Of a DNA stretch of 12,930 bases, positions 1-12,930 are shown piece by piece. Position 1 is the first letter of the stretch; each line of letters begins with the position of its first letter. The notes under the pieces were generated by a model, which saw nothing but the letters and a program-made list of their open reading frames with translations, was not told where the DNA came from and did no database searches. Where the stretch lies: contig CAYOAS010000022.1 in the NCBI GenBank assembly GCA_964402015.1, positions 1 through 12,930 on the forward strand. Reading direction: 5' to 3'. Origin of the DNA: an uncultured archaeon (GTDB lineage: Archaea > Iainarchaeota > Iainarchaeia > Iainarchaeales > JAGVWC01). Both the position numbers and the translations under genes were made by a program.

Positions 1-382
1 GCAAAAAACAGGCACTACCAAATGTAGTCAATAAAATTCAGCTAAAAATCAGGTATCTAGATTGAAAAAAATAAGCCTAATAAAAAAGCGAGCCGGCTAA
101 TGACTTGGAAAAAAAGTAGCGATGGCAAAATATAAGTGTCAATCAAAACTTTCCCTTCCGCTACGCAACAGACAAAAAAGAACGGATGAAAACAGTAATA
201 GAAAGAGCGCTTGAATACAAGAAAGAAAAACAGCGCAGCTAACTTTTTGGATTTTGTTGTTTGTCTTTTGCTTGTGCCCAGAGAAATTCAAAAAAACCAA
301 ATTGTGGTGTTAGAATAAAATACAAACGTGTTTCATTTCCAGTTTGAAATGAATATTTCCTGCCAAAATTCTTCTTGTCACA

Positions 383-568
383 ATGGATTTTCTTTTGCCT
401 TCGCATATCGTTAACTATTTTAACGTTTCCAAGCACACTAGAACTATGCAAGAGTATAATGTAAAGCATGTTTCCCCTGTTGTTTCGCGGAAAAAATTCC
501 AGGGGCACGTTTATAATGTTACTACCGAAACAGGCAACTTGTTTGTAGAAGACATTTTGGTTCACAAT
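383..568 (+). mobile_element. Orphan intein C-terminal half (IntC-a) fused in frame to the Lon extein. There is an alternative internal start at ATG 446, which would give a 41-aa IntC.
   Basis: [26 protein letters not shown] followed by S at +1 is a canonical block F/G. It resembles the pattern of known short IntC halves such as Neq Pol IntC (...VILYDLSTESGKFYVNGLVLHN). No intein block A or B, and no Lon N-terminus, is present in the 382 nt upstream. That region is A-tract-rich and has stops in all frames. Confidence 0.6.
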
Positions 569-2305
569 TCAGGCGGCCTTGGAACTCCGGCGCACTTGAG
601 GATTGAAGCCGGCTTGATTCACAAAAGTTCCGGTGGCGTGCTATTTTTGGATGAAATTGCTACTCTTTCCCAGAAGGGGCAGCAGGAATTGTTGACAGCA
701 ATGCAGGAAAAAAAATATTCAATTACCGGCCAAAGCGAAATGTCTTCTGGAGCCATGACTAGAACAGAGCTGATTCCTTGTTTTCCGGCTGGAACAATAA
801 TTGCAACTGAAAAAGGCTTTGTTGAAATTGATAAATTTGTGAACGGGCTGTTTGAAAGTCAAGCATGGCAAGTTGGCAAAGAAAATAGTGTGGATTTTTT
901 GGATTTACTGGATTCTATTAAAGTTTGGGTTCCAACAGATAACGGAATTTTTTTAGACAAATTGGAACGAGTTTATAGGAAGCCTTTTTCTGGTAAATTA
1001 ATAAAAATTACTTTTGATGATGGCAGTGAATTATTGGCGACCAAAGAGCATCCAATTAAAACGCCAACGGGTTTTATCCAAGCAAAAGACCTTAAAATCA
1101 GGCAGGCAGTAGAAGCGATTTCACCAATAATTGATGATATGAAAATAATTGAAACATACAATAAAGAAAATCAGCGAGTTGCAAAGGCATATGCTGCTTG
1201 GAAAGCAAACCCATCATTAAAATCCAAAATACTCGGGGTTGATTATAAAACAATCGCTGCTTGGAAAAAAGGAACAGTGCCAAGGACCCTTCGTTGCATT
1301 GATTGGTTGAAAAAAAGAAAATTGCTTCCTTTGCTTTACGAGGATTCTAGATTGGGTCTGATTGCACGAATCAGTGGTGCTTTATTTGGAGACGGGGGTT
1401 TAACAAGAACTGGGTTGTTTTTTGTAACTGATTCAAACAGCAGAATGGACTTGGATGCTTTTAAGTATGATTTGATTAAAACTTTTGGGGACGATTTGGA
1501 ATCAAATTTTGTTTTCAGAAAACACGCTTCAAAAAAAGGGAGCGGTATTGATGTTTCTATGCATAATGCTTTTGTTTCCAGATTTTTTGCTGCGCTTCAG
1601 GTTCCTCGCAATGGCAAGGTAGCACAGCAGTTTGAAGTTCCTGCTTGGGTAAATTCTTCAAATGAAACAAAAAGAGAGTTTTTTTCTGCATTGTTATCCT
1701 GTGAAATGTGCGGCAAAATAAAAAATGCTGGCGGTAAAATATCATTTGTAATGGCAAAGGTTAAAAAATTTGAAAAACAACACATTGCTTTTTTAAATGA
1801 AATAAAAAATTTTTTGGCTGAAAACAAAATAGAGACGAGCAAAATTATTGAAAACAGGAGTTATATGAGAAATAAGACTGGCACGCCAGAAACTGCTGCG
1901 CTTTATTCTTTTAATATTCAGAATAACTGTGGGAATATTGCCCGCTTTATGAATCTGGTTCAGATTTGTTATGCAAGTAACAAAGCGGGTTATATGAAAA
2001 GGCGGTTTGAAGCAGCAGCAATTTACTCTGAAAATTTGGGAGTATTAAAAACAAATAAAGTTAATGCTCTGAAATTGCGGGCAAAGGGTTTAACTATAAA
2101 AGAAATAGGCAATTGCATTAAGCTTTCAAAAAACACTATCCTGAAGACAATTGAGCCGACTTACAATCAGTATTCTTCCATGCACAAAAAAATAGCAGCA
2201 GACCTAATGAAAACCGGCTTGACTGCCAAAAAAGCTGCGCTAAAATTAAAGATGCCATACACTACTTTACTTTATTGGAAAAATAATGGTGAAATGAATG
2301 TTTAA
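383..2305 (+). CDS. lon: Lon (LonB-type) protease fragment 1. It is a fusion of an intein C-terminal half (aa 1-62), the Lon AAA+ Walker-B/sensor-1 segment (aa 63-132), and the N-terminal splicing region plus LAGLIDADG endonuclease of a second intein (aa 133-640).
   Basis: The translation contains SGGLGTPAH...[13 protein letters not shown]...[33 protein letters not shown], which matches the archaeal LonB Walker-B region. The preceding ...[21 protein letters not shown]|S is an intein block F/G ending in His-Asn with Ser at +1. After ...TELIP the sequence [10 protein letters not shown] (intein block A) and ...ATKEHPI (block B, TxxH) follow. The ORF begins after an in-frame TGA at 350-352. The ORF track confirms the frame. 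Confidence 0.75.
569..778 (+). other. lon: Lon extein segment of 70 aa, covering Walker B (VLFLDEI) through the PCDF junction, and bounded by inteins on both sides.
   Basis: This is the aligned LonB motif run. It is interrupted exactly between the P and C of the conserved P-C-D-F(V/I)LVAAGN motif. Confidence 0.7.
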
Positions 2306-2417
2306 CACGACAACAAAAAAGATTGTTTCAATTGAAGAAACAGATTATTCCGGAATGGTTTATAATCTAAAAACAGTTTCTGGCACTTATTTGGCTAATG
2401 GTATTGCTGTTCATAAT
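779..2417 (+). mobile_element. Large intein (intein-b) inserted at the Lon PCDF site. Block A is at 779, block B at about 1040, the LAGLIDADG homing-endonuclease domain at about 1340-1800, HTH-like DNA-binding segments at about 2060-2280, and block F/G at 2350-2417.
   Basis: The intein starts at Cys ([14 protein letters not shown]) and ends [25 protein letters not shown] with Cys at +1 ([10 protein letters not shown]). Its length is 1639 nt, which is not a multiple of 3. The reading frame breaks at 2298-2305, where the gene 1 stop TAA overlaps the gene 2 ATG in ATGAATGTTTAA. The intein is therefore encoded across two ORFs. Confidence 0.75.
1340..1800 (+). other. LAGLIDADG homing-endonuclease domain inside intein-b.
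   Basis: Two LAGLIDADG-type motifs are present. [17 protein letters not shown] lies at nt 1352-1402. [16 protein letters not shown] lies at about nt 1673-1720. They are spaced about 100 aa apart, as in double-motif LAGLIDADG enzymes. Confidence 0.6.
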
Positions 2418-3506
2418 TGTGATTTTGTTCTGGTTGCAGCTGGAAATTATGAAGATTTGAGAAAGGTTCATCCCGCGCTCCGTTCAAGAATCCGCGGTTA
2501 TGGGTATGAGGTTTACATGAACAGTGACATGCCTGATACCCCGGAAAACAGGTTAAAGATTGTAAAATTTGTTGCGCAGGAAATAAAAAAGGACGGAAAA
2601 ATTCCTGCTTTTTCAAGAGAAGCTGTTGAAGAAATAATTTTTGAAGCAAGAAGGCGTGCGGGAAGCAAGAACAAGCTGACTTTGAAATTGCGCGATTTGG
2701 GCGGTCTTGTCCGCGCTGCCGGAGACCTTGCAAAAGAAAAGGGAAAAATTCTTGTAGAGCGCCAGGATGTTTTTGAGGCAAAAATGAGCGCAAGGACATT
2801 GGAGCAGCAGATGGTTGGAAAAATTTTGGAGCACAGGAGAGAATACAATGTTTATTTGACTGAAGGCAGTGCTGTCGGCAGAGTAAATGGCCTGGCTGTT
2901 TCTGGCGACGGGGATGCCGGCCTGGTTTTGCCAATCGAAGCAGAGATTGCACCGGCACAATCGAGCGCAGAGGGAAAAATAATTGCCACTGGAAAGCTTG
3001 GAGAAATTGCAAAAGAGGCAGTGCAAAATGTTTCGGCTCTTGTAAAAAAACTCAGTGGAAAAGACATAAGCAAATTCGATTTGCACATTCAGTTCTTGCA
3101 ATCTTATGAGGGCGTTGAAGGCGATTCTGCAAGCGTTTCTGTTGCAACAGCTGTCATCAGCGCGCTTGAGGGAATTCCGGTAAAGCAATCGCTTGCAATG
3201 ACTGGCTCTTTGAGCGTGCGCGGAGAAGTATTGCCAGTCGGCGGCATTAGTGCAAAAGTCCAGGCTGCAATAAAAGCTGGCTTTAAAGAAGTCATTGTTC
3301 CAAAATCAAATATTGAGGATATTGTTTTGCCGGAAAGCGAATTGAAAAAAATCCGTGTTGTTTCAGTTTCCAACATTTCCGATGTTTTGGATTGCGCATT
3401 TGAAAAATCAAGCCAAAAAATAAAGCTGTTGAAAGACCTGGACAAGCTAGTGAAAATCAATTTGTCAAGAGTAATAGAAAAAACAATAGAAAAAATTTCA
3501 GCCTAA
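2298..3506 (+). CDS. lon: Lon (LonB-type) protease fragment 2. It consists of an intein C-terminal half (aa 1-40, IntC-b) followed by the Lon AAA+ C-terminal subdomain and the Ser-Lys protease domain (aa 41-402).
   Basis: The product starts [40 protein letters not shown]|[10 protein letters not shown]. Downstream are the sensor-2 motif ALRSRI and the protease domain, with catalytic Ser in GDSASVS and Lys in [10 protein letters not shown]. The start overlaps the gene 1 stop by 8 nt. Confidence 0.8.
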
Positions 3507-3674
3507 GCATTCTGAACCTGCGGTGTTCGGAAAAAAAAGGTTTCAGAGCCAGCAATCCTTATAACACTAAAGTAGACCCTGACAACACGAAGATACCCCA
3601 TACAAAAAAAATTACCCAAAACAGTATTCTAGTTTGACTAAAAAAAATAATAAAGGGCATAAAAATGGAATATC

Positions 3675-4046
3675 ATGGCTCAAAAAGCTAAGATGTCGAG
3701 ACCATTTCGAAGAGGAGTTGTTTGTCTTAAGAGGGCTTGGCGCGTAATTGTAGGCTCTTACAAGACAGGAAGGGGCACGGGTCGTACTGATGCACTCAAA
3801 GAAGCAGCGCTTGTTGAAATGAAAAAGAAAAAACCTGATTGGGAAAAAATACTTCGTGTCAGAAAAGCAGTGGAAGAGGACATTAAACGCAACGAAGAAT
3901 TTATACGGCAAGTCAGGAAACTAATGAAAACTGCTCAAAAAATAGGCAAACCAGCTGATTCATATGAGGGCTTTATAAAAAAATCGCAAGCAGCCATTTT
4001 GTCCCATAAAAGGTTCTTGCGTAAAATAGGCTGGAGACACAGGTAG
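3675..4046 (+). CDS. Hypothetical small protein of 123 aa, very basic (K/R-rich), with no recognised family.
   Basis: A clean ORF with an ATG start. An AT-rich TATA-like segment (aataataaa) lies about 30 nt upstream. A convergent terminator hairpin lies downstream. Function is not assignable from sequence. Confidence 0.45.
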   Translation: MAQKAKMSRPFRRGVVCLKRAWRVIVGSYKTGRGTGRTDALKEAALVEMKKKKPDWEKILRVRKAVEEDIKRNEEFIRQVRKLMKTAQKIGKPADSYEGFIKKSQAAILSHKRFLRKIGWRHR

Positions 4047-4052
4047 TGCAAT

Positions 4053-4090
4053 AGGTTTCCGTCTGTTTGTTTTGAAACCTGTTTTTTGTT
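4053..4090. terminator. Bidirectional terminator-like hairpin plus T-run between two convergent genes.
   Basis: aggtttc(4053-4059) ... gaaacct(4074-4080) forms a 7-bp stem. It is followed by ttttttgtttt. Confidence 0.45.
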
Positions 4091-4091
4091 T

Positions 4092-5342
4092 TCAGTTTGC
4101 TAATATTATTCTTCCGTCGCGGAATGTGAAGTCTTTTTTCTTTATTTTTGCTGTTTCTTTTGTGCGCACGTTATGGAAAGCAATGTTTTCTTTTTCCGCG
4201 TCAATTGCTTCAATTTTTCCGAGCCATTTTCCCTGTTTGTCGTAAACTGGCAATCCCATTAATAGTTTTGTTATTTTTCCGCGCACGTCAAAGACCTTTG
4301 AAGACTGGTAAACGAGGAATAATACCAAAAAGCTGAACAGAATGCATCCCAAAAACCAGTTTAAATCTGCTTGTTTCAGGAACACTTGAGTTCCTGCATC
4401 CAGAATCAGCCAGACCAGGAAAATTGAAACGGAATACAAAAAATACTTGCGCAGTGCAAACGCTTTTTTGAAGTGCACAGTGTCAATTCCTTTTCCGATT
4501 ACAAAGCTGAGTGCGGAAAGCGCTGCAAAAAAATATGCTTGTTGCGCGCTCTGGATTGAATTCAATACAAATTCAAGGTCTTTGTTTGCCGCAAAATTTG
4601 CATATGCTGTTATTGCGCCGAAAGCGAGAATGAAAACGCTCCCGATATAAAAAGGAAAGCTCATGCGCTGTATTGAAAAGCTCGAGCCAAAACTCCTTAT
4701 TCCGGAAACAATGGGTTCTTCCAAACCAAAGCCTTTCAAGAGGAAATATATTCCGATTACAAGCGAAACCAATTGCAGGCTGAGGGAACCAAAGAAAAAA
4801 TATGCCAAAAAAATTACTGCCGGAATAAGCAACAGCCTTGAAATGCTCGGGTCCTTGAACGCTTCAATTATTGTATAATAAGTGCTTTCCACTTCTTTTG
4901 CCTGTTTTATTATTACAACCTCTTTTGAAACCAACCGCATTTTTGATTGCAGCAACGGCAATACCTGCTCGTCTTCCGCGCCGTCAGTTACGAGCACAAA
5001 ACCGTCCGCGGGATTTTTTTCCAGAATTGAATCCAATTGCTCCATTATTTGCCTGTCGGACTTGAAACCGCTTTTGTCAACGCCAGTAAATATTGCTACC
5101 TCTGTATTCTGGATTTCTTCTTTTACCTCGTCAAATTTTTTTATTGCCGCAAACATGCTGTTTGAATCGCTTTCAGAGGGATCTGCAACAGCCAATTTTG
5201 CTGCTGCATTCAATACAGCGCGCCTGCCAATGACCGGGCCTTGAATGCCTGTTTTTCTGCCCAAATCGTTGTCGCGGTCAACGCACACTACCAAAATGCT
5301 GTTAATCGTCTTCAATTCTACCACATTTAACCCTATTGCCAA
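4092..5342 (-). CDS. DUF373-family archaeal integral membrane protein. The N-terminal soluble domain carries an ILVVCVDRDNDLG motif. About 6 TM helices follow. The C-terminus has a small beta-rich domain.
   Basis: The N-terminal ...ILVVCVDRDNDLGRKTGIQGPVIGRRAVLNAAAKLAVADPSESDSN matches my recollection of the DUF373 signature. Hydrophobic helices occupy aa about 170-350. The annotated start at 5342 is a TTG, and an in-frame GTG lies at 5324. No ATG occurs before aa 63. Confidence 0.5.
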   Translation of the reverse strand: MAIGLNVVELKTINSILVVCVDRDNDLGRKTGIQGPVIGRRAVLNAAAKLAVADPSESDSNSMFAAIKKFDEVKEEIQNTEVAIFTGVDKSGFKSDRQIMEQLDSILEKNPADGFVLVTDGAEDEQVLPLLQSKMRLVSKEVVIIKQAKEVESTYYTIIEAFKDPSISRLLLIPAVIFLAYFFFGSLSLQLVSLVIGIYFLLKGFGLEEPIVSGIRSFGSSFSIQRMSFPFYIGSVFILAFGAITAYANFAANKDLEFVLNSIQSAQQAYFFAALSALSFVIGKGIDTVHFKKAFALRKYFLYSVSIFLVWLILDAGTQVFLKQADLNWFLGCILFSFLVLFLVYQSSKVFDVRGKITKLLMGLPVYDKQGKWLGKIEAIDAEKENIAFHNVRTKETAKIKKKDFTFRDGRIILAN

Positions 5343-5346
5343 GAAG

Positions 5347-5375
5347 TCTATAACCTGAACTTATTAGGTTATAGA
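5347..5375. repeat. Perfect 10-bp inverted repeat with a 9-nt loop. It is a candidate IS200/IS605 left-end subterminal hairpin and also a possible RHH operator.
   Basis: tctataacct gaacttatt aggttataga. A related hairpin (ccataacct...aggttatg) occurs at 6704-6736, at the 3' end of tnpB. Confidence 0.5.
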
Positions 5376-5422
5376 TGAATTGGTAATCCGTGTTTTTATT
5401 CTTTTCTGTTCTAATTTGTTCT

Positions 5423-5560
5423 ATGGAGAAAACGAGCATTTCTATTTGGAAAGACACAGTAGAAAAAGTTGCTGTTTTGGCTAAAAAAGAAAATCGTAGC
5501 ATATCGGCTCAGATAGATTACATTATACAAAAATATTTTGAAGGACAGGGAAAAAAATGA
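5423..5560 (+). CDS. Ribbon-helix-helix (CopG/Arc/MetJ-type) DNA-binding protein of 45 aa.
   Basis: Translated by hand as MEKTSISIWKDTVEKVAVLAKKENRSISAQIDYIIQKYFEGQGKK. It shows a beta-strand (SISIW), helix 1, an N-R-S turn, then helix 2, which is the classic RHH layout. Its stop TGA overlaps the tnpB start in ATGATGG. It is absent from the ORF track only because it is shorter than 60 aa. Confidence 0.55.
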   Translation: MEKTSISIWKDTVEKVAVLAKKENRSISAQIDYIIQKYFEGQGKK

Positions 5561-6741
5561 TGGCATACAAGTTTCGGCTTTATCCTTCAAAACAACAAGC
5601 ACAGGCATTGTTCAAGACATTCAATTTGTGCAGATTCATATACAACAATCTATTGGAAAAACTGAACAATAGCAAAAAGATTAATAGAAAAGCAATCCAA
5701 CATTTAATTGTTGAATTGAAAAAAGAATATCCTGAACTAAAAACGGTTTATTCAAAAACATTGCAGTATGAATGTTATCGGTTGTTTAGCAATTTGTGTT
5801 CATTATCCCGATTGAAAAAGAAAGGGCAAAAGGTGGGAAAATTGCGTTTCAAGGGAAGAGATTGGTTCAAGACAATCAATTACAATCAAAGCGGTTTCAA
5901 GTTGGAGCAAACAGGAAAACGCTTTGGCAAATTATCTCTTTCAAAAATAGGCAATCTAAACATTCGTTGCCACAGAATAACAAGCGGAAAAATCAAGCAA
6001 ATAACAATCAAGAAAAGCGCAAACAAGTGGTATGCTATTCTAATAACTGATGGAACAAACAATCGCCAATGTGGAACTAGAAAGATTGGCTTGGACTTGG
6101 GAATAATCAATTTTGTTGCAGACAGCAATGGCAACAAAACAAAATCACCATTGTTCTTGAAAAAGAACTTGGCAAAAATCAAGTTGGCACATCAAGATTT
6201 ATCAAGAAAAAAAAGGGGAAGCCAAAACAGAAAAAAGTTAAAACAACATTTAAACAAACTTTATGAAAAGGTTGATGACCAACGAAACGATTTTTTGCAA
6301 AAGCTATCAACAAAAATCGTTTCAGAAAACAAACTAATCTGTATAGAAAAGCTCGTCATCAATAAAATGGTTAACAACAAGAAAAACAAACATTGGAACA
6401 AGCGGAATATGCTTGATTGTTCTTGGGCAACATTTACTTCCCTACTAAAACGCAAGGCTGAAAGTGCTGGTGCAAAAGTAATAGAAGTAAATCCAAAGAA
6501 CACAACAAAAACGTGCAGCAATTGTGGAACTATGCAAGATATTCCATTATCACAGAGAACATACTCTTGTGATTGTGGATTGGAATTGGATAGGGATACA
6601 AATGCCGCTAAAAATATATTGGCTCTGGGACAGGGCTTTGTTGAGAAATTTCCTCTACCTTCCGACAATGTTGGAATGCAAGAACATTCAATGAAACAAG
6701 AAGCCATAACCTCAACACTAAAAGCGTTAGGTTATGAATAG
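5557..6741 (+). CDS. tnpB: IS200/IS605-family TnpB (OrfB), an RNA-guided RuvC-like nuclease.
   Basis: The N-terminus AYKFRLYPSKQQAQALFKTFNLCRFIYNN is the typical OrfB_IS605 start. The RuvC-I motif is IGLDLGI. The RuvC-II motif is LICIEKL. The zinc ribbon is CSNCG...SCDCG. The RuvC-III motif is LDRDTNAAKNI. All catalytic residues are present. Confidence 0.85.
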   Translation: MMAYKFRLYPSKQQAQALFKTFNLCRFIYNNLLEKLNNSKKINRKAIQHLIVELKKEYPELKTVYSKTLQYECYRLFSNLCSLSRLKKKGQKVGKLRFKGRDWFKTINYNQSGFKLEQTGKRFGKLSLSKIGNLNIRCHRITSGKIKQITIKKSANKWYAILITDGTNNRQCGTRKIGLDLGIINFVADSNGNKTKSPLFLKKNLAKIKLAHQDLSRKKRGSQNRKKLKQHLNKLYEKVDDQRNDFLQKLSTKIVSENKLICIEKLVINKMVNNKKNKHWNKRNMLDCSWATFTSLLKRKAESAGAKVIEVNPKNTTKTCSNCGTMQDIPLSQRTYSCDCGLELDRDTNAAKNILALGQGFVEKFPLPSDNVGMQEHSMKQEAITSTLKALGYE

Positions 6742-6830
6742 TTCACATAATTATTCAAAGCAATGTTATATATACATTAATTCCATATCAAAAATATAAT
6801 AGTTATGATAATATCTGGCAAAAAGCAAAA
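6600..6830 (+). ncRNA. Predicted omega-RNA (right-end element RNA) of TnpB. It would overlap the 3' end of tnpB and extend past the right end into a guide segment.
   Basis: By established knowledge of IS200/IS605 TnpB systems, the omega-RNA scaffold is encoded at the tnpB 3' end and right end. Here that region contains the right-end hairpin. No direct structural evidence can be obtained by eye. Confidence 0.25.
6704..6736. repeat. Right-end subterminal hairpin of the IS, related to the left-end hairpin.
   Basis: ccataacct (6704-6712) and aggttatg (6729-6736) are reverse complements around a 16-nt loop. The shared core is ATAACCT/AGGTTAT. Confidence 0.45.
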
Positions 6831-6842
6831 AAGTGGTAATTG

Positions 6843-7838
6843 ATGGCAAAACGATTGGGCCAACTGGAAAGCTATAAGGTAAAACAATGGATTTTTGTCC
6901 TTATTGCAATACTGGTTTGTGCAATAATTTATCTTTCCATGGCAAACCAGGAAACAATTGTCCCGCTTGTTCTGGTTCTTGCACTTTCGGCAATAGCTCT
7001 TTTTTTAGTAAAACAATACGATTTTTTGCTTACACTAAAGGAATACGAACGCGCTGTAATTTACCGCTTTGGCCATGTGAACAGGGTTGGCGGGCCAGGC
7101 TGGACTTTAATGTTGCCACTGATTGAATCTTTCAAGCTCGTTGATTTGCGCACAAGCACTATCGACATTCCCGAACAAGAAGTAATAACCAAAGACAAGA
7201 TTGTAACAAAGGTTGACGCAATTGTTTATTTGTACGTAAAGCCTGACAGCAGTTCTGTAACGCACAGCGTTATTGAAATTGATGATTACAGAAAGGCAGC
7301 GGAATTGTTTGTTCTTTCTTCAATCCGCGATGTTGGCGGAACAATGACCTCGAGCGAACTGATTTCAAACACAGCAGAGCTTAACACAAAAGTAAAAGAA
7401 AAAGTTTCCCAGATTGCCGACAGTTGGGGCGTTACAATTGAAAGCGTTGAAATCAGCAGCATAAAATTGCCAGAAACAGTTGCAAGCGCAATGCACGAGC
7501 AAAAAGCAGCAGAGCAAAAAAAGCTCGCGCGAATGGAATCAGCGCTCGCAAACCAAGCAGAAATAGACGCAGTAAGGACAGCAGCAGACCAGTTAAGCGA
7601 CAAGGCGCTTGCCTATTATTACATTCGCGCTTTGGAAAAGCTTGGAGAAGGGCCTTCAACAAAATTCATTTTTCCAATGGAATTAAGCAAGCTTGCTGAA
7701 CAGCTTGCGGGCAGAGTAAAAAGCGGTGTTTCATCTGGAGATTCTGAAATGGAAAAATTGTTCAAAAAATATGCGCCAGCAATAAAAGCCTTTGTTGAAA
7801 ACGAAAAAAAACAAAAAGGCAACGCAAAAAAGCGATGA
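6843..7838 (+). CDS. SPFH/band-7 (stomatin/prohibitin-like) membrane protein.
   Basis: There is an N-terminal TM helix. It is followed by YERAVIYRFGHVNRVGGPGWTLMLPLIESFKLVDLRTSTIDIPEQEVITKDKIVTKVDAIVYLYV, a canonical SPFH core. The C-terminus is coiled-coil-like and Ala/Glu/Lys-rich. The track start at 6840 is a TTG. The ATG at 6843 is preferred. Confidence 0.8.
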   Translation: MAKRLGQLESYKVKQWIFVLIAILVCAIIYLSMANQETIVPLVLVLALSAIALFLVKQYDFLLTLKEYERAVIYRFGHVNRVGGPGWTLMLPLIESFKLVDLRTSTIDIPEQEVITKDKIVTKVDAIVYLYVKPDSSSVTHSVIEIDDYRKAAELFVLSSIRDVGGTMTSSELISNTAELNTKVKEKVSQIADSWGVTIESVEISSIKLPETVASAMHEQKAAEQKKLARMESALANQAEIDAVRTAADQLSDKALAYYYIRALEKLGEGPSTKFIFPMELSKLAEQLAGRVKSGVSSGDSEMEKLFKKYAPAIKAFVENEKKQKGNAKKR

Positions 7839-7850
7839 ATTTGCGCGACA

Positions 7851-7857
7851 GATTCTT
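7851..7857 (+). terminator. T7 run 13 nt downstream of the SPFH stop. It is an archaeal-type oligo-T terminator candidate.
   Basis: ttttttt lies immediately after the stop at 7836-7838. A 7-bp hairpin, aagcaat/attgctt, lies at 7931-7951 between the convergent genes. Confidence 0.35.
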
Positions 7858-7983
7858 TTTTTAGCCAATGCAATTAAGCAGTTCACTAAAGAACAATGGC
7901 TTAACGCTCTAGGCTTTAAGCTGAAGATAAAAGCAATATTGATTATTGCTTCTAAAACGCCGTGGAATTTATTCTATGGTTCT

Positions 7984-8823
7984 TCACACGTTGAGAATAA
8001 GGTATGCCTCAATTATTGCTGCTGCGAATAATACAATGAATGCTGTCACGACAAGCACTGCTGCATCCTTTAAGCAGTTTTCAAAAATGTTTTTTTTGTA
8101 TTTTCTCGTTATGCCAACGCTGATTATGCCGCCGGCAATTGCGCCAATAAAATAAGCTGTTATTTCCGGAATGCCGTGCGGCAGCAATCCAATCGCGCGC
8201 ATGCTTGCCCTCACGAGGTCTGTTGCAAGCAATTCTTTTCCAATTACAAGGCCAATCACTGAAGCATTCCATGCTATGAGAAAAATCGCGCCAACGCCAT
8301 ATGCAAAGCTGAAGAGTATTGCCCATAATAATACCATTGCGTTGTTGTAGAAAATGCAGTTAATTGCAAGGCCAAAAATGTCAGAGCTCTTGCACGCTGT
8401 TGCTAAAGCGCTTGTTTGTGTCGCGTTCCCGCGCAAATTGGTTATCTGAAGCCATGTTGTTTCCTGTTCCTTGAAAGCAAGGTCGCGTTGTGGTGCGGGC
8501 AAATAATAATACCAAAAAGCATAGCAGACAATCAAGCCAATGAAAAACCAGCTGTAGACTTCAATTATGTCAAAATGCCTTTCGAGGAACGTTAACGGGG
8601 GACCCGGGCATTTTTCCTCTTCTTTTTCTTCTTTGATAAAAATAGCGTAAAGCACTGGCACTATTGCCACTGTAACAAAAGCAATGCCTAAAACGCTTGC
8701 TGCGTTTGGAAAGGTTTGCAGGCTCGCGAAGATGCCGACAGTGCACAATACAAAGGCATTGACAAGCATTGCAATTGGGTGCCTTCTTGCAAAATTTGCC
8801 TTTAAAACAGATTCCAAAACCAT
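7984..8823 (-). CDS. SpoIIM/DUF95-family integral membrane protein.
   Basis: It is a multi-TM protein. Its C-terminal motif ...AIGLLPHGIPEITAYFIGAIAGGIIS resembles the hG.pE motif of stage II sporulation protein M-like proteins (DUF95). It has an ATG start at 8823. Confidence 0.45.
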   Translation of the reverse strand: MVLESVLKANFARRHPIAMLVNAFVLCTVGIFASLQTFPNAASVLGIAFVTVAIVPVLYAIFIKEEKEEEKCPGPPLTFLERHFDIIEVYSWFFIGLIVCYAFWYYYLPAPQRDLAFKEQETTWLQITNLRGNATQTSALATACKSSDIFGLAINCIFYNNAMVLLWAILFSFAYGVGAIFLIAWNASVIGLVIGKELLATDLVRASMRAIGLLPHGIPEITAYFIGAIAGGIISVGITRKYKKNIFENCLKDAAVLVVTAFIVLFAAAIIEAYLILNV

Positions 8824-8891
8824 TTTTTGCCCTTCCGCATAAACCAGTGTTTTTTTATAGTTTTCCTATCCTAAAAAATATGGAAAAGAAG

Positions 8892-8899
8892 TATTTAAA
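8892..8899 (+). promoter_or_regulatory. TATA-box-like element (tatttaaa) about 40 nt upstream of csl4, in a divergent intergenic region.
   Basis: It is an AT-rich octamer resembling the archaeal TATA consensus, at a suitable distance from the ATG at 8940. It has not been checked for a BRE. Confidence 0.3.
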
Positions 8900-8939
8900 C
8901 CCGCTCTTTTTTGCTGTTGTTTGAAAAAGGTTTTTTTTT

Positions 8940-9524
8940 ATGAGTCAAGACAAGGAAAGCGAAAGCAAAATGGTTTTTCCAGGCACATTCCTCGGGGCAG
9001 AAGAAGAATATCTTGCCGGAAAGAATGCTGGTGTTGATGATTATGGCAATATTGTCGCCTGCACTGTTGGAAAAAAGGAAACAATCGCGCGCAACCGCAG
9101 CATTGAAATAAAAAAGCCCGGCAAGAACGCTTTGCCTTTCGAGCCAAATGATATTATCCTTGGCAGGATTTCTCTTGTAAAAGAGAACAGTGCAATGGTT
9201 GAAATTGACAGCGCAGAGCGCAACGGAATGGAAAAAAAGATTTTGCGCGGAGTTGCGGCAATAATGATCAGAATGGTTGACGCTGGTTTTGTAAGGCAAT
9301 TGTCGGACAAATTTCGCATTGGCGATATTGTAAAGGCAAAGATTGTTTCAGTTAGTTCCTGTGGCATCGATTGCAGCACTGCTGACGACAGGGAATTTGG
9401 GGTAATAAAGGCTTTCTGCAAAAAATGCAGGCAGCCGTTGCAATTGTTTGGAATGCAGTTGAAATGCCTTAATTGTGGCAATACTGAAACGCGGAAGATT
9501 TCAAGCGATTATGTTTTGAAATAA
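8940..9524 (+). CDS. csl4: Exosome complex RNA-binding protein Csl4 (S1 domain plus C-terminal zinc ribbon).
   Basis: The N-terminus is VFPGTFLGAEEEYLAGKNAGVDDYGNIVA. An S1-like segment is GDIVKAKIVSV. The C-terminus is CKKCRQPL...LKCLNCGNTETRK (CxxC...CxxC). This is the archaeal Csl4 architecture. Confidence 0.7.
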   Translation: MSQDKESESKMVFPGTFLGAEEEYLAGKNAGVDDYGNIVACTVGKKETIARNRSIEIKKPGKNALPFEPNDIILGRISLVKENSAMVEIDSAERNGMEKKILRGVAAIMIRMVDAGFVRQLSDKFRIGDIVKAKIVSVSSCGIDCSTADDREFGVIKAFCKKCRQPLQLFGMQLKCLNCGNTETRKISSDYVLK

Positions 9525-9548
9525 TAAAATAAAATTTGAGGTGTTTTT

Positions 9549-9824
9549 GTGGAAATTGAAATAATCAAAAGCCAGCAGAATCACGCGGAATTCAAGATAA
9601 AGGGAGAAAGGCATACTTTGCCAAACCTGTTGCGCAACCGCCTGCTGAAAGACAGCAGCGTTGTTTTTGCAGCATACAAGCTTAAACACCCGCTCGACAA
9701 CGATTCTGTTTTTGTAATAACAACAAAAGGAAAAACCGCAAAAAAAGCATTGCAGGAAGCCTGCAACAAAATCGATTCCGAACTGGAAGAATTGCGCAAG
9801 GCAATAAAAAAAGCAATGAAGTGA
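9549..9824 (+). CDS. rpoL: DNA-directed RNA polymerase subunit L (Rpb11 homologue).
   Basis: The 91-aa product EIEIIKSQQNHAEFKIKGERHTLPNLLRNRLLKDSSVVFAAYKLKHPLDNDSVFVITTKG matches the RpoL/Rpb11 pattern. It has a GTG start with a GAGGTG Shine-Dalgarno sequence 8 nt upstream. Confidence 0.7.
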   Translation: MEIEIIKSQQNHAEFKIKGERHTLPNLLRNRLLKDSSVVFAAYKLKHPLDNDSVFVITTKGKTAKKALQEACNKIDSELEELRKAIKKAMK

Positions 9825-9852
9825 GCGCGAATTGTTTTACCTAAAGCCATTG

Positions 9853-10401
9853 ATGAGAACAATTGCTTTTGACGATGGTTATTTCAAACCCAAAAAAAAA
9901 GGCAAGGCGCTTTTGGTCGGCATTCTTTCCCGCTTTGACAACCACATTGAAGGAATTGTTTCCGCCAAAATTTCCGTTGACGGCTTTGACAGCACAAAAA
10001 AAATTTTTGGCTTGATAAAAAAAACGCGTTTTGGCGAACAAGCGCAGTTCATTCTGCTTAGCGGCTTGAACTTTGCGGGCTTCAACATTGTTGATGTGCT
10101 GCAATTGTTCAAGAAAACCAAAAAGCCAGTAATTATTATTTTTCGCAAAAAGCCCGATTTGAAAAAGTTTTTTTTGGCAATAAAAAAAACCAAGAGTGCA
10201 ATGAAGCGCCGGCAGCTTGTTTTGAAAGCCGGGGCAATTTATTCTGTTGGAAAGATTCATTTTCAGGCAATCGGAATTTGCAAAAGAGACGCCGCGCAAT
10301 TAATAAAAAGGCTTTGCGCCAACTCTAACTTGCCAGAGCCAATCAGGCTGGCGCACCTGGTTGCGAGCGGACTTTCTCTGGGGGAAAGCACGCGCCCGTG
10401 A
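9853..10401 (+). CDS. DUF99/UPF0215-family protein, a conserved archaeal protein of unknown function with an endonuclease-V-like fold.
   Basis: MRTIAFDDGYFKPKKKGKALLVGILSRFDNHIEGIVSAKISVDGFDSTKK matches my recollection of the UPF0215 N-terminal motif (G.DDG.F ... LVGV ... DG.D.T). The track start at 9832 is a TTG. The ATG at 9853 is preferred. Confidence 0.45.
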   Translation: MRTIAFDDGYFKPKKKGKALLVGILSRFDNHIEGIVSAKISVDGFDSTKKIFGLIKKTRFGEQAQFILLSGLNFAGFNIVDVLQLFKKTKKPVIIIFRKKPDLKKFFLAIKKTKSAMKRRQLVLKAGAIYSVGKIHFQAIGICKRDAAQLIKRLCANSNLPEPIRLAHLVASGLSLGESTRP

Positions 10402-11180
10402 AAATAAAAAGTTTAGTATTTGAAGAGTGGTTTTTTTTGGGCATAATGGACAAACTGAAATGGCTTGACCCGTTCACTTATGTGGATTTACTGCTTGAAA
10501 AATTCAATCCAAACCACAACAAAGTTGTTGACTGGTCTGTTTACCTTGTCAGCGCTTTCGTTTTTGCCTGGATATTGTACTCGCTTTTTGGCATTGCCTT
10601 TGGAACAAGCGCGCCATTCGTAATTGTTTTGAGCCCCAGCATGGAACCAGTATTATATCGGGGAGACATTGTTGTGATGGTTGGCGCGGCTCCTGAAACA
10701 ATAAAGGCGCAATCTACAATAATTGATTTTCCTTTGGGTGAAAAAGCATTTTGGGATTTTGGAAAAATAGCTTATGGCACTGACGAAAAGGGAAATCTTT
10801 TTGCAAAAAATATTTTTTTGAGCGAGCAACAGGTTTTTGACATTACAAAAGACGGGGACACGATTGTTTATTTTTCGCAGTACAGGCAGGAACCAATCAT
10901 TCACCGGGCAGTGCTGAAAATAATCGCTCCCGATGGAACTTTCATTATAACGAAGGGTGACAGCATTCACAATACGACAATTGACCAGGATTGCGGGCGC
11001 GTTATCAATGAAAGGCCGGAACGCGATTGCATTACTCTTTATCCAATAACTGCAAAAGACATTCAGGGAAAAATGTTGTTCAAAATTCCCTTGCTTGGAT
11101 ATGTCAAGCTGTTGATTTTTGATGACATTCCACAGCTCTTGTTCGGCTGCCCGAAAGGAAGGGTTTGCTATTTTCCGTAA
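10398..11180 (+). CDS. Signal peptidase I (S26B, Sec11-type archaeal signal peptidase).
   Basis: A TM helix is followed by VLSPSMEPVLYRGDIVV (catalytic Ser box), IIHRAV (His box) and ITKGDSIHN (conserved Asp box). The GTG start overlaps the upstream stop in GTGA. An alternative ATG start lies at 10446. Confidence 0.6.
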   Translation: MKIKSLVFEEWFFLGIMDKLKWLDPFTYVDLLLEKFNPNHNKVVDWSVYLVSAFVFAWILYSLFGIAFGTSAPFVIVLSPSMEPVLYRGDIVVMVGAAPETIKAQSTIIDFPLGEKAFWDFGKIAYGTDEKGNLFAKNIFLSEQQVFDITKDGDTIVYFSQYRQEPIIHRAVLKIIAPDGTFIITKGDSIHNTTIDQDCGRVINERPERDCITLYPITAKDIQGKMLFKIPLLGYVKLLIFDDIPQLLFGCPKGRVCYFP

Positions 11181-11264
11181 GGGCTTATTATAAAAAAAGT
11201 TTTTTTGTGCAGTTTCCTTTAAAAATTTGTTGAACCAAAGAATCTGAATCGAAATGGTGAAAGA

Positions 11265-12014
11265 ATGGTAGAACTTGTTTTGGAGAATGCTGCTGTGTTC
11301 AAGAAGTGCATTGATGCTATTTCTGTTTTGATTGACGAAGCCGAGTTTATTATTGACAAGGATGCTGTGCGCCTGAAGGCAACTGACCCTTCGCAGATTT
11401 CAATGGTTGATTTTGTATTGGAAAAAAGCGCTTTCAAGCATTACCGCGTTGAAAACCTTACGAAAATCGGATTGGATTTGGATTATTTGTCGCAGGTAAT
11501 GAGCCGCGCTGGTTCAAGCGATGAATTAATGCTTTCGCTTGACGAGGCAAAATCGCGGTTGATTGTTTCTTTCAATGGAACTTCAAAACGCAGCTTTTCC
11601 GTTCCATTGATCGATGTCAGCGCCGCGGAACTGCCGACGCCAAAAATAGAGTTTGATTCAACAATAAAAATGTTGGCGGGAATTTTCCAGGACGGCTTGA
11701 AGGATGCTGTGCTTATTAGCTCGCACATTACTGTTGGGGTAAGCGATGACAATTTTTTCCTTAAAGCTAATTCAAGCAAGGGCAGTGTTGAAAACACGAC
11801 AAGCAACAAGGAAAAAGGCATTATTGATTTCAAGGCAACAAAAGAATGCACAAGCATGTTTCCGCTTGATTACCTGACTGACATGTTAAAGGTTGCAAGC
11901 TCTGACAATGAAATAACAGTTTACCTGAAAAACAATGCCCCCATAAAAATTTCTTATTTGATTGGCAAAGCGCAGATAACTTATTTCCTTGCGCCGCGCA
12001 TAGAAACAGAATAA
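11265..12014 (+). CDS. pcn: DNA polymerase sliding clamp (PCNA).
   Basis: The product is 249 aa. FKKCIDAISVLIDEAEFIIDKDAVRLKATDPSQISMVDFVLEKSAFKHYRVEN...IGLDLDYLSQVM matches the archaeal PCNA N-domain. Its length and two-domain repeat are typical. Confidence 0.8.
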   Translation: MVELVLENAAVFKKCIDAISVLIDEAEFIIDKDAVRLKATDPSQISMVDFVLEKSAFKHYRVENLTKIGLDLDYLSQVMSRAGSSDELMLSLDEAKSRLIVSFNGTSKRSFSVPLIDVSAAELPTPKIEFDSTIKMLAGIFQDGLKDAVLISSHITVGVSDDNFFLKANSSKGSVENTTSNKEKGIIDFKATKECTSMFPLDYLTDMLKVASSDNEITVYLKNNAPIKISYLIGKAQITYFLAPRIETE

Positions 12015-12095
12015 AATTGAGGACTATTAGTTTTTTTTCTTTGCAAACAATTATATTTTTAACAGATTCAGAATTTGTTTTTTTCGGGTGTGCAA

Positions 12096-12575
12096 ATGAT
12101 TTGTTTTATTGCGCTATTTGTTTTTGCAATTCTGGCGATTTTCTCTGCAAGATACAGGCCGTTTGCTTTGGAAGCATTCGACTGCGTTTTCCGCAGGGTA
12201 ACATTGCGCCCGTGCACAACTGGCTTTGACAAGAAAATGAAAATGCGCATCAGCACAAGGCTATTGGCAAAAAACCCGTGCTTGGGAAAGTTTGTGAACA
12301 AGCACTTCGAGGCTATTTCTTGGTTGCTGACAATAACAATGATAGCCAGCTTTTTTTATGCTGCTCTTGGAGTTTACAACTGGTGGGCATTCGGCAACTG
12401 CAACGGCCCGAATAGCAATGCTGCCTGCATATTAAATGACCTCACTGGCAAAAACGAGCCGCTGGGCTGCGAATGCGATGTAAATGGTTGCACCCAACAG
12501 GATATAGCCTATTGCAATGGCGACTGCAATTGCCTTTCGAGCCTCTGCCTGCAACAGGCAATATATCCAAAATAA
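12096..12575 (+). CDS. Hypothetical membrane protein with 3 predicted TM helices and a Cys-rich C-terminal extracytoplasmic tail.
   Basis: The ORF is preceded by the TATA-like ttatattttt at about 12050-12059, which makes the ATG at 12096 likelier than the upstream ATG at 12075. The C-terminus GNCNGPNSNAACILNDL...GCECDVNGCTQQDIAYCNGDCNC contains 11 Cys. No family is recognised. Confidence 0.4.
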   Translation: MICFIALFVFAILAIFSARYRPFALEAFDCVFRRVTLRPCTTGFDKKMKMRISTRLLAKNPCLGKFVNKHFEAISWLLTITMIASFFYAALGVYNWWAFGNCNGPNSNAACILNDLTGKNEPLGCECDVNGCTQQDIAYCNGDCNCLSSLCLQQAIYPK

Positions 12576-12579
12576 TTTT

Positions 12580-12652
12580 TGCCCGCACGGGCAGCAAGAG
12601 CTTTGCCTATAAAGTCAATCTTGCCCACAAAGTCAAAAAATTGCCCACAAAA
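12580..12652. repeat. Short palindrome (tgcccgcacgggca) followed by 2-3 imperfect direct repeats of AAAGTCAA-N-TTGCCCAC. It is a candidate operator or regulatory array, or a terminator.
   Basis: ttgcccgcacgggca lies at 12579-12593. aaagtcaatcttgcccac lies at 12611-12628. aaagtcaaaaaattgcccac lies at 12629-12648. The region sits between the stop at 12575 and the next ATG at 12782. Confidence 0.4.
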
Positions 12653-12781
12653 CTAATAATATTTATTTTATGCGATTTTTTGTTTATGCTTTTTGCCCAA
12701 ATGTTTTGCGATTGACCTAAGCGAAGCCTCAATAATCTTTATGTCACACTTAAACGGAGCAACGTTGAAACAACGTTTAGC

Positions 12782-12930
12782 ATGATTAAAGCAAAGTTCA
12801 ACGACCTAATAAAAAACAAAAAACCGACAGCGCAGGTAAACGAATTGCTTTGTAAAATATTATGCCATAATATTGTTGTTTTAATTCACGAAATGCACGA
12901 ATTAAATATTAACCCTCAATTTGAGCAAAA
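12782..12930 (+). CDS. Start of an unknown ORF (MIKAKFNDLIKNKKPTAQVNELLCKILCHNIVVLIHEMHELNINPQFEQ...) that runs off the window.
   Basis: It is an open frame from the ATG at 12782 to the window end. No family is recognised from 49 aa. Confidence 0.3.
   Translation, partial: MIKAKFNDLIKNKKPTAQVNELLCKILCHNIVVLIHEMHELNINPQFEQ

Follow-up and report, generated by a model that had tools for sequence, protein, structure and literature searches.

The window analyzed here is the whole of a 12,930-nucleotide (nt) stretch of DNA from an uncultured archaeon (GenBank assembly GCA_964402015.1, contig CAYOAS010000022.1, positions 1 to 12,930 of the forward strand). From about 5332 to 6746 it carries an insertion sequence (IS) of the IS200/IS605 family, in which a 45-amino-acid (aa) gene of the CopG/Arc-type ribbon-helix-helix (RHH) family stands directly before tnpB. 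The small open reading frame (ORF; 5423 to 5560, plus strand) runs from an ATG at 5423 to a TGA at 5558 to 5560, and its predicted product is MEKTSISIWKDTVEKVAVLAKKENRSISAQIDYIIQKYFEGQGKK. Its stop codon shares bases with the ATG of tnpB (5557 to 5559) within the sequence ATGATGG. Both the ORF and this stop/start overlap had been pointed out in an initial annotation of the stretch and are present as described.

The tnpB gene (5557 to 6741, plus strand) is intact and encodes 394 aa. It was identified by homologues, by invariant catalytic columns, and by Pfam matches over the cut-offs to HTH_OrfB_IS605, OrfB_IS605, and Cas12f1-like_TNB. The RuvC residues D180, E264, and D347, the last within the motif ELDRDTNAA, and the C4 zinc finger (C320/C323/C338/C340) are kept in the protein and invariant among its relatives, so that both the alignment columns and Pfam confirm the motifs that the initial annotation had read as intact. 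A word-indexed protein search returned 3569 homologues, the best at 87% identity. The ratio of nonsynonymous to synonymous substitution rates (dN/dS) against four close relatives (L060 to L063) is about 0.10, and by this sequence-based measure tnpB is constrained by purifying selection relative to its relatives.

Recognition of the small ORF depended on the search method. It had no match in the word-indexed search of 5.8 billion proteins, nor in a scan of Joint Genome Institute (JGI) metagenome contigs with exact 8-residue peptides. Both nulls reflect limits of these methods, because an exhaustive phmmer search of 1.84 billion representative proteins then recovered an RHH family. The five homologues (P0121 to P0125) are led by P0121, of 45 aa, which is 59% identical to the window ORF (E = 8e-9), and include P0122, of 46 aa. 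In P0124 (110 aa), two RHH units lie in tandem within one polypeptide. On its own, the window ORF gave subthreshold matches to the Pfam families RHH_5 (E = 6.6e-4, 19.8 bits, cut-off 26), RHH_1 (E = 2.9e-3, 17.9 bits, cut-off 20.5), ParD_like (E = 0.013, 15.9 bits, cut-off 23), and DUF6364 (E = 4e-3). RHH_1 and ParD_like were each matched by 5/5 family members and RHH_5 by 4/5, with a best E of 5.7e-6. In the family alignments (A3 and A5), the homologues share the motif T-I-x-I-x-K-x-T-x-x-K-x-x-x-L-A-x-K-E-[KN]-R-S-x-S-A-Q-I-D-Y-I-[IL]-x-K-Y-F, and every invariant column of the 10-sequence alignment A5 is retained in the window ORF. Its dN/dS against a homologue at a separate locus (L066) is about 0.12, a value to be read with saturated dS.

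The fold was examined by sequence, profile, and structure comparisons. A phmmer search of Protein Data Bank (PDB) sequences with the window ORF gave chance-level matches only, and the family profile had Arc as its top match (E = 0.076). A monomer model built by AlphaFold2 (AF2) from the single sequence was a two-helix hairpin with nonsignificant Foldseek scores, and it was replaced by a monomer model built on the family alignment. The latter has a mean pLDDT of 88.4 and consists of an extended segment (residues 1 to 9) followed by helices at residues 10 to 22 and 27 to 43, i.e., the beta-alpha-alpha topology. The turn between the helices, N-R-S (residues 24 to 26), fits by its sequence the usual G/N-x-S/T helix-capping motif. 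Against the PDB, Foldseek placed Arc, CopG, StnY, and AmrZ on top (probability 0.99 to 1.0, TM 0.7 to 0.8 over the full length), followed by MatP, PutA, and RHH antitoxins, and RHH proteins made up nearly all of the best 45 matches. Foldseek E-values were only 0.04 to 0.1 because a 45-residue domain is so short. On these homologues and this model, the ORF is a genuine RHH-family gene, whose product is predicted to dimerize and bind DNA. The RHH identity proposed initially is thereby borne out, an RHH fold being seen in the family-based model, and a spurious call is all but ruled out.

The element that houses this gene has well-defined ends. Its left end (LE; 5332 to 5391, plus strand) is nearly identical to the left ends of related elements (ATTGCCAAGAAGTCTATAACCTGAAnTTTGTTAGGTTATAGATGAATTGG, corresponding to window 5335 to 5384) and holds a perfect 10-bp inverted repeat, TCTATAACCT-N9-AGGTTATAGA, at 5347 to 5375. 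The right end (RE; 6650 to 6746, plus strand) carries a hairpin at 6706 to 6735, ATAACCT-N16-AGGTTAT, with the same stem as the LE hairpin and a pattern that is unique in the window. This hairpin is kept in the relatives, two sequences showing a compensatory change at one pair. LE and RE have the sequence AAGAAG(T/C)C(T/C)ATAACCT(G/C)AAC in common. Conservation with the relatives (L060 to L064) runs to the terminus TTCAC at 6742 to 6746, five bases past the tnpB stop, beyond which the flanks are unrelated. At the other side, TTTAAC (5326 to 5331, plus strand) lies directly 5' of the left end. TTTAA(C/T) occupies this position in L061, L062, L063, L001, and L004, TTTAAA does so in L060, and the sequence farther upstream is unrelated between elements. 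By analogy with IS200/IS605 biology, TTTAAC is probably the target or transposon-adjacent motif, which in this family precedes the left end. Subterminal hairpins at both ends, no terminal inverted repeats, and a fixed flanking motif are what characterizes IS200/IS605 ends, and all three are found here. The GC content of the IS is 34%, against about 40% around it.

In IS200/IS605 elements, subterminal hairpins are the single-stranded DNA sites that the transposase TnpA recognizes. The palindrome at 5347 to 5375, which does lie 48 nt ahead of the ORF start as reported initially, had been suggested as an operator for the RHH protein. This proposal found no support: the palindrome is the left-end hairpin of the IS, since tnpA-bearing relatives without an RHH gene share it and the right end mirrors its stem, and it is thus the expected TnpA site, with nothing that would single it out as an RHH operator.

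No Y1 transposase gene is present in the element apart from the last six tnpA codons (5540 to 5557), and the element thus cannot move by itself. What the relatives carry at this place was read from contigs recovered for five of the six closest TnpB relatives (no gene is recorded for the sixth, P0006) and from one more distant locus. TnpB identity to the window protein is 87% for P0001 (L060), 83% for P0002 (L062) and P0003 (L063), 81% for P0004 (L064 and L065), 78% for P0005 (L061), and 65% for L004. In all of them, the slot directly upstream of tnpB holds a Y1 tnpA of 136 to 139 aa, the copy in L064/L065 being cut by the contig end. In 5/6 of these tnpA-bearing relatives (L060, L061, L063, L064/L065, and L004), tnpA and tnpB are joined by the same ATGA overlap, and in L062 the two gene calls have one base in common (tnpA, 512 to 931; tnpB, 931 to 2103). 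The overlap therefore predates the RHH gene. It also follows that the initial placement of the element in an IS1341-like lineage with a solitary tnpB was mistaken, because the relatives at 78 to 87% TnpB identity all have tnpA in the slot. Conservation of the small ORF in other copies, the check proposed along with that annotation, had a negative outcome: the ORF is absent from every related element, which makes the pairing a singleton.

Local alignments resolve the region between left end and tnpB into three segments of different ancestry. Window 5335 to 5385 matches the left ends of L060 to L063 and L001 at 47/49 to 55/58 nt, and this homology stops at about 5385. Positions 5392 to 5539 align with L066, an RHH locus, at 107/147 nt, and the first 31 nt of this stretch lie before the ATG. 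From 5526 to 5620, the window aligns with the tnpA tail and the 5' end of tnpB of the relatives at 82 to 84 of 95 nt. The second and third segments overlap over a 14-nt microhomology, TACAAAAATATTTT (5526 to 5539, plus strand), to which both parents align; here the encoded residues are ...QKYF... in the RHH family and ...KKYV... in tnpA, the latter with a conserved Tyr codon near the tnpA C terminus. This microhomology is the likely crossover zone. It is followed at 5540 to 5560 (plus strand) by the tnpA 3' remnant E-G-Q-G-K-K-stop, which comprises a G-rich, Shine-Dalgarno-like stretch and the ATGA overlap. The tnpA genes of L060 and L061 end in ...KKYVE(G/D)QGKGKEL* at the same ATGA junction, and compared with the L061 tail (E-G-Q-G-K-G-K-E-L-stop) that of the window is 9 nt shorter. 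As read from these alignments, the 45-aa gene is a chimera of RHH-derived codons 1 to 39 and tnpA-derived codons 40 to 45 plus the stop. The idea that the whole ORF is an internally deleted tnpA was also tried and was ruled out by Smith-Waterman comparison of 5386 to 5524 (139 nt) with tnpA of four close relatives on both strands, in which scores were no better than those of shuffled sequences. A decayed TnpA remnant, which the initial annotation had considered, is thus found in the last six codons and the stop and nowhere else in the ORF. When the insert was searched by blastn and tblastn against 65 loci and the rest of the window, matches were at chance level except for the tnpA tail.

The RHH family has its own habitat. 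About 30 loci of its members were inspected, namely, L066, 19 metagenome loci (L067 to L085), 10 IMG/VR viral contigs (L086 to L095, one of them identical to the contig of L068), and L096 and L097. With the window TnpB and the TnpA of one relative as tblastn queries, neither gene was found within about 4 kb of the RHH gene in L066 to L095, and neither is among the called genes of L096 and L097, giving 0 of about 30 loci overall. The neighbors are instead a tyrosine integrase with ParA, a rolling-circle Rep, a GIY-YIG SegE-like endonuclease, DUF2726, and a PAPS-reductase-like gene, and one homologue is transcribed divergently from a leftward operon whose last gene encodes a phage integrase. Judged by this gene content, the family is one of virus/plasmid regulators without a standing transposon link.

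The captured DNA appears to have brought a promoter along. The region at 5392 to 5422 (plus strand), which aligns with DNA upstream of the homologues in L066 and L067, is promoter-like and includes the TATA-like sequence TTTTTATT at 5393 to 5400, whose first base lies 30 nt and whose center lies about 26 to 27 nt before the ATG. The motif GTTTTTATTCTTTTCT(A/G)TT upstream of the RHH ATG has identical spacing in L066 and is placed within one base in L067. Archaeal TATA boxes usually lie about 26 to 27 nt from the transcription start; given this general architecture, the distance of the box from the ATG suggests a leaderless mRNA. A direct repeat of TGTTCTA (5407 to 5413 and 5417 to 5423) with a 10-nt spacing, out of three copies of this heptamer in the window, is a candidate operator that is suggestive without being statistically compelling. 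A scan for sigma-70 promoters and terminators was set aside as uninformative for an archaeon.

These observations can be combined into a model of origin and regulation. Illegitimate, microhomology-guided recombination would have exchanged tnpA and its promoter for about 148 nt of a virus/plasmid RHH gene, bringing in the TATA-like promoter of that gene. The RHH gene would have been fused in frame with the final six codons of tnpA and would have taken over from it the ribosome-binding stretch and the ATGA overlap, which had served to couple tnpA to tnpB. The captured piece lacks the native 3' end of its RHH gene, and for this reason transcripts are expected to run on into tnpB and the right-end scaffold. 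A probably leaderless mRNA would then start at the captured promoter and extend through the RHH gene into tnpB and the omega-RNA region. The initial annotation had taken the two genes as cotranscribed and probably translationally coupled; their common strand and the overlap with an intact tnpB inside the IS ends make both plausible, while read-through and coupling stay predictions. RHH proteins of such size usually repress their own promoters. An RHH dimer that binds by its own promoter would repress it and would place TnpB and its guide RNA under negative autoregulation, a mode of control demonstrated for Arc in bacterial IS605 elements (bioRxiv 10.64898/2026.09.24.754181). With the transposase absent and both end hairpins intact, a TnpA supplied in trans could still mobilize the element. 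Overall, we consider it probable, with considerable room for doubt, that the locus is a non-autonomous derivative of a tnpA-tnpB-type IS200/IS605 element that captured an RHH cassette and now carries RHH-tnpB as an autorepressed unit.

Several points weigh against this interpretation. Taken alone, the window ORF stays below the gathering cut-offs in all its Pfam RHH matches. The TGTTCTA repeat was rejected as a significant operator, being too short in DNA that is too T-rich, and the promoter, the leaderless start, the read-through, the coupling, and the repression are steps that we infer. The nearest RHH locus is just 73% identical in DNA, so that the junction positions are approximate. No second copy of the RHH-tnpB arrangement was found in the 5.8 billion proteins, the JGI metagenome contigs, or the 1.84 billion representatives, where the best match is the 59% identical homologue. 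By these searches, the arrangement is a singleton.

This singleton status, together with the lack of any tnpB linkage elsewhere in the RHH family, speaks for an accidental capture. The RHH protein would then have no role in the IS, or would keep its old virus/plasmid role, e.g., repressing a related invader, and the element would be a stranded, non-autonomous relic. A further related element supports the premise that tnpA can be lost without gain of a regulator. L001 (73% TnpB identity; 3860 to 4004) comes from the same IS lineage and lost its tnpA independently; in it, about 60 nt of unrelated filler without an ORF separate the left end from the kept tnpA tail K-Y-T-E-S-R-G-K-G-K-stop. The filler contains a nested palindrome, AGTGGC...ATGGTT..AACCAT...GCCACT. 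Retention of the tail behind the filler suggests that this G-rich stretch is kept because it serves tnpB translation. Against a mere accident, the fusion in the window keeps the reading frame, supplies the end of the second helix, and leaves the ATGA junction in place; the RHH residues that are invariant in the family are all kept; tnpB and both ends are intact; and related elements repeatedly have small DNA-binding genes in the slot, one AbrB type being conserved in three genomes. We therefore regard accidental capture as the less likely explanation, although it deserves to be taken seriously.

Two other explanations fare worse. The RHH protein might be an antitoxin-like partner that binds TnpB and blocks guide-dependent cleavage, as has been proposed for other archaeal TnpBs (PMC10691335). 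A small RHH gene upstream of, and overlapping, a nuclease gene recalls the order of type II toxin-antitoxin operons, and the weak ParD_like match would fit. Yet the 45-aa protein consists of no more than an RHH domain, with a tnpA remnant as its tail in place of a C-terminal toxin-binding extension, its homologues occur without any TnpB, the overlap goes back to tnpA-tnpB and did not arise for the RHH-TnpB pair, and the TnpB has a canonical D-E-D site, as opposed to the rearranged site of the published clade. Such a partnership is improbable. Least probable by far is a chance open frame or decayed tnpA remnant that yields no functional protein. The tnpA origin of codons 40 to 45, the absence of the ORF from all related elements, and the subthreshold single-sequence Pfam matches speak in its favor, but they are outweighed by homologues found at E = 8e-9 among 1.84 billion proteins, by DNA homology to an RHH locus that includes the upstream region, by a confident model of RHH topology, and by the lack of tnpA similarity in 5386 to 5524. 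On this sequence and model evidence, that explanation is largely refuted.

RHH proteins have already been reported from such elements, contrary to the initial statement that they are not recognized in the IS200/IS605 family. Arc-like RHH ORFs in IS605, IS607, and IStron elements were reported in 2023 (Zedaveinyte et al., bioRxiv 10.1101/2023.11.20.567912), and in bacteria Arc was shown in 2026 to bind and repress IS605 promoters, including in elements with arc and tnpB only (Moon et al., bioRxiv 10.64898/2026.09.24.754181). As in the bacterial Arc elements, the window has an RHH microprotein of about 45 to 50 aa inside the IS boundaries beside tnpB, and repression of its own promoter, demonstrated there, is proposed here. 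In the bacterial elements, found in Clostridia and relatives, a bidirectional sigma-70 promoter often separates arc and tnpA from a divergent tnpB, whereas in the archaeal window the RHH gene points the same way as tnpB, overlaps it, and stands in place of tnpA, with the tnpA tail forming its own 3' end. The Arc clade as defined by the Sternberg lab is seeded by WP_003367503.1 and WP_094548610.1; the relatives of the window RHH protein, all unlinked to transposons, suggest a different RHH lineage.

Archaeal tnpB genes that follow an RHH or AbrB/MazE gene have also been described and were read as toxin-antitoxin pairs (Altae-Tran et al., PNAS 2023, PMC10691335). TnpBs of that RHH/MazE-TnpB clade have a rearranged RuvC-III, with Asp changed to His in the RIIIr-4 branch, and were called non-mobile (PMC10691335). 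The window resembles the clade in having a small gene of the RHH/AbrB kind directly upstream of tnpB. It departs from it in its canonical, not rearranged, D180/E264/D347, in its intact IS ends, and in an association that is not clade-wide, the nearest relatives having tnpA. With canonical elements of the IS608/ISDra2 type, the window shares end hairpins with a common stem (ATAACCT/AGGTTAT), a 5' flanking motif, the lack of terminal inverted repeats, a right-side tnpB that overlaps the right-end/omega-RNA region, and an ATGA junction upstream of tnpB; the difference is the Y1 transposase gene, missing but for its last six codons. The RHH-tnpB pairing is therefore of an already-known type and discloses no new mechanism, its regulatory principle having been shown in bacteria.

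Small DNA-binding genes occupy this slot in other elements as well. A survey of 53 related genome loci with a readable region upstream of tnpB found tnpA in 9, AbrB-like ORFs of 38 to 43 aa in 5, RHH-like ORFs of the DUF7557 type in 4 clear and 4 tentative cases, and a zinc-ribbon ORF in 1. These slot ORFs adjoin or overlap the tnpB start, and all full-length TnpBs are canonical. The AbrB/SpoVT-like ORFs (L008, 3876 to 4004; L012, 3292 to 3420; L031, 3867 to 3995; L022, 953 to 1084; and L036, 3888 to 4004) come from Pacearchaeota/Woesearchaeota-type genomes and overlap the tnpB start or stop within a few bases of it; that of L008 matches MazE_antitoxin at E = 1.2e-3. In L008, L012, and L031, an LE-like hairpin sequence, most evident in L031, precedes the ORF and tnpB follows it, and the ORF together with a promoter-like ATATAAA box is conserved across these three genomes, whereas the window RHH gene is a singleton. 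The DUF7557-type ORFs (L057, 2386 to 2520; L058, 3883 to 4008; L056, 3883 to 4008; and L032, 3859 to 4038) overlap the tnpB start in Pacearchaeota and Aenigmatarchaeota contigs, with a Pfam DUF7557 match at E = 6.8e-10 for L057. The tentative RHH-like ORFs are those of L039, L040, L035, and L037 (Natrinema). A Methanomethylicota contig (L055, 3880 to 4008) provides the 42-aa zinc-ribbon ORF (CxxC...CxxC), which has several Zn-ribbon Pfam matches and overlaps the start of a tnpB fragment. The AbrB-like and DUF7557 ORFs of DPANN archaea thus occupy the same slot before a canonical TnpB as does the window RHH gene, but they have a swapped-hairpin AbrB fold or belong to DUF7557 and show no sequence relation to it. 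AbrB-like, RHH-like, and zinc-ribbon ORFs at one site point to a slot that was repeatedly filled by small DNA-binding genes of independent origin.

At the other end of tnpB, the sequence has features expected of a guide RNA. Rfam had no match anywhere in the window and thus no curated omega-RNA family. The region at 6650 to 6746 is probably the 3' part of the omega-RNA scaffold, as judged from its sequence. Within the 3' coding region of tnpB, the stem GGCTCTGGGACAGGGCT (window about 6621 to 6637) is conserved with compensatory changes (alignment A6) and may mark this scaffold as well. The first bases past the right end, ATAATTATTCAAAGCAATGT (6747 to 6766, plus strand), are predicted to encode the guide, given TnpB/omega-RNA architecture and the break of conservation after TTCAC.

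The surroundings are those of an archaeal chromosome, with genes for LonB, a DUF373 protein, an SPFH protein, an exosome Csl4-like protein, RpoL, an Endo_dU-family endonuclease, and PCNA. The nearest TnpB homologues are from Iainarchaeota/Diapherotrites and other DPANN archaea. On this gene content and these homologues, the IS is located in the chromosome of a DPANN-like archaeon. The DUF373 gene, on the minus strand, has its listed TTG start at 5342 (start region, 5313 to 5342), inside the IS left end, and its Pfam match begins at residue 16; these positions place the true start only a few bases from the IS, which probably cuts the gene off from its original promoter. Farther away, the LonB gene appears as two overlapping ORFs, at 383 to 2305 (640 aa) and 2298 to 3506 (402 aa, Lon_C plus LonB lid). 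The 640-aa ORF has a short AAA+ match (residues 44 to 126) and a weak Intein_splicing match (E = 1.3e-4, residues 191 to 271), suggesting that LonB contains an intein and that its frame is broken at 2298 to 2305.

A broader generalization would be that DPANN IS605 elements repeatedly swap their transposase for DNA-binding cassettes of viruses or plasmids (RHH, AbrB, or zinc ribbon), with LE and the tnpA tail as anchors, and so create self-repressed, trans-mobilizable guide-nuclease modules. We hold this to be a speculation that is rather unlikely to be right in full. If it were true, the window would catch in one recent event how regulator-TnpB pairs arise. It is also possible that, with a viral repressor carried in its chromosome by the IS, the host gains a degree of immunity against the donor virus.

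To conclude, the locus adds an archaeal (DPANN-like) case to the IS605-family elements with an RHH regulator, and one whose origin can be read from the sequence, as a repressor cassette with its promoter spliced by microhomology into the tnpA slot. The slots compared here suggest that replacement of the transposase by a small DNA-binding gene is a recurrent route to dedicated transcriptional control of TnpB. Such recurrent slot replacement bears on the domestication of TnpB derivatives.

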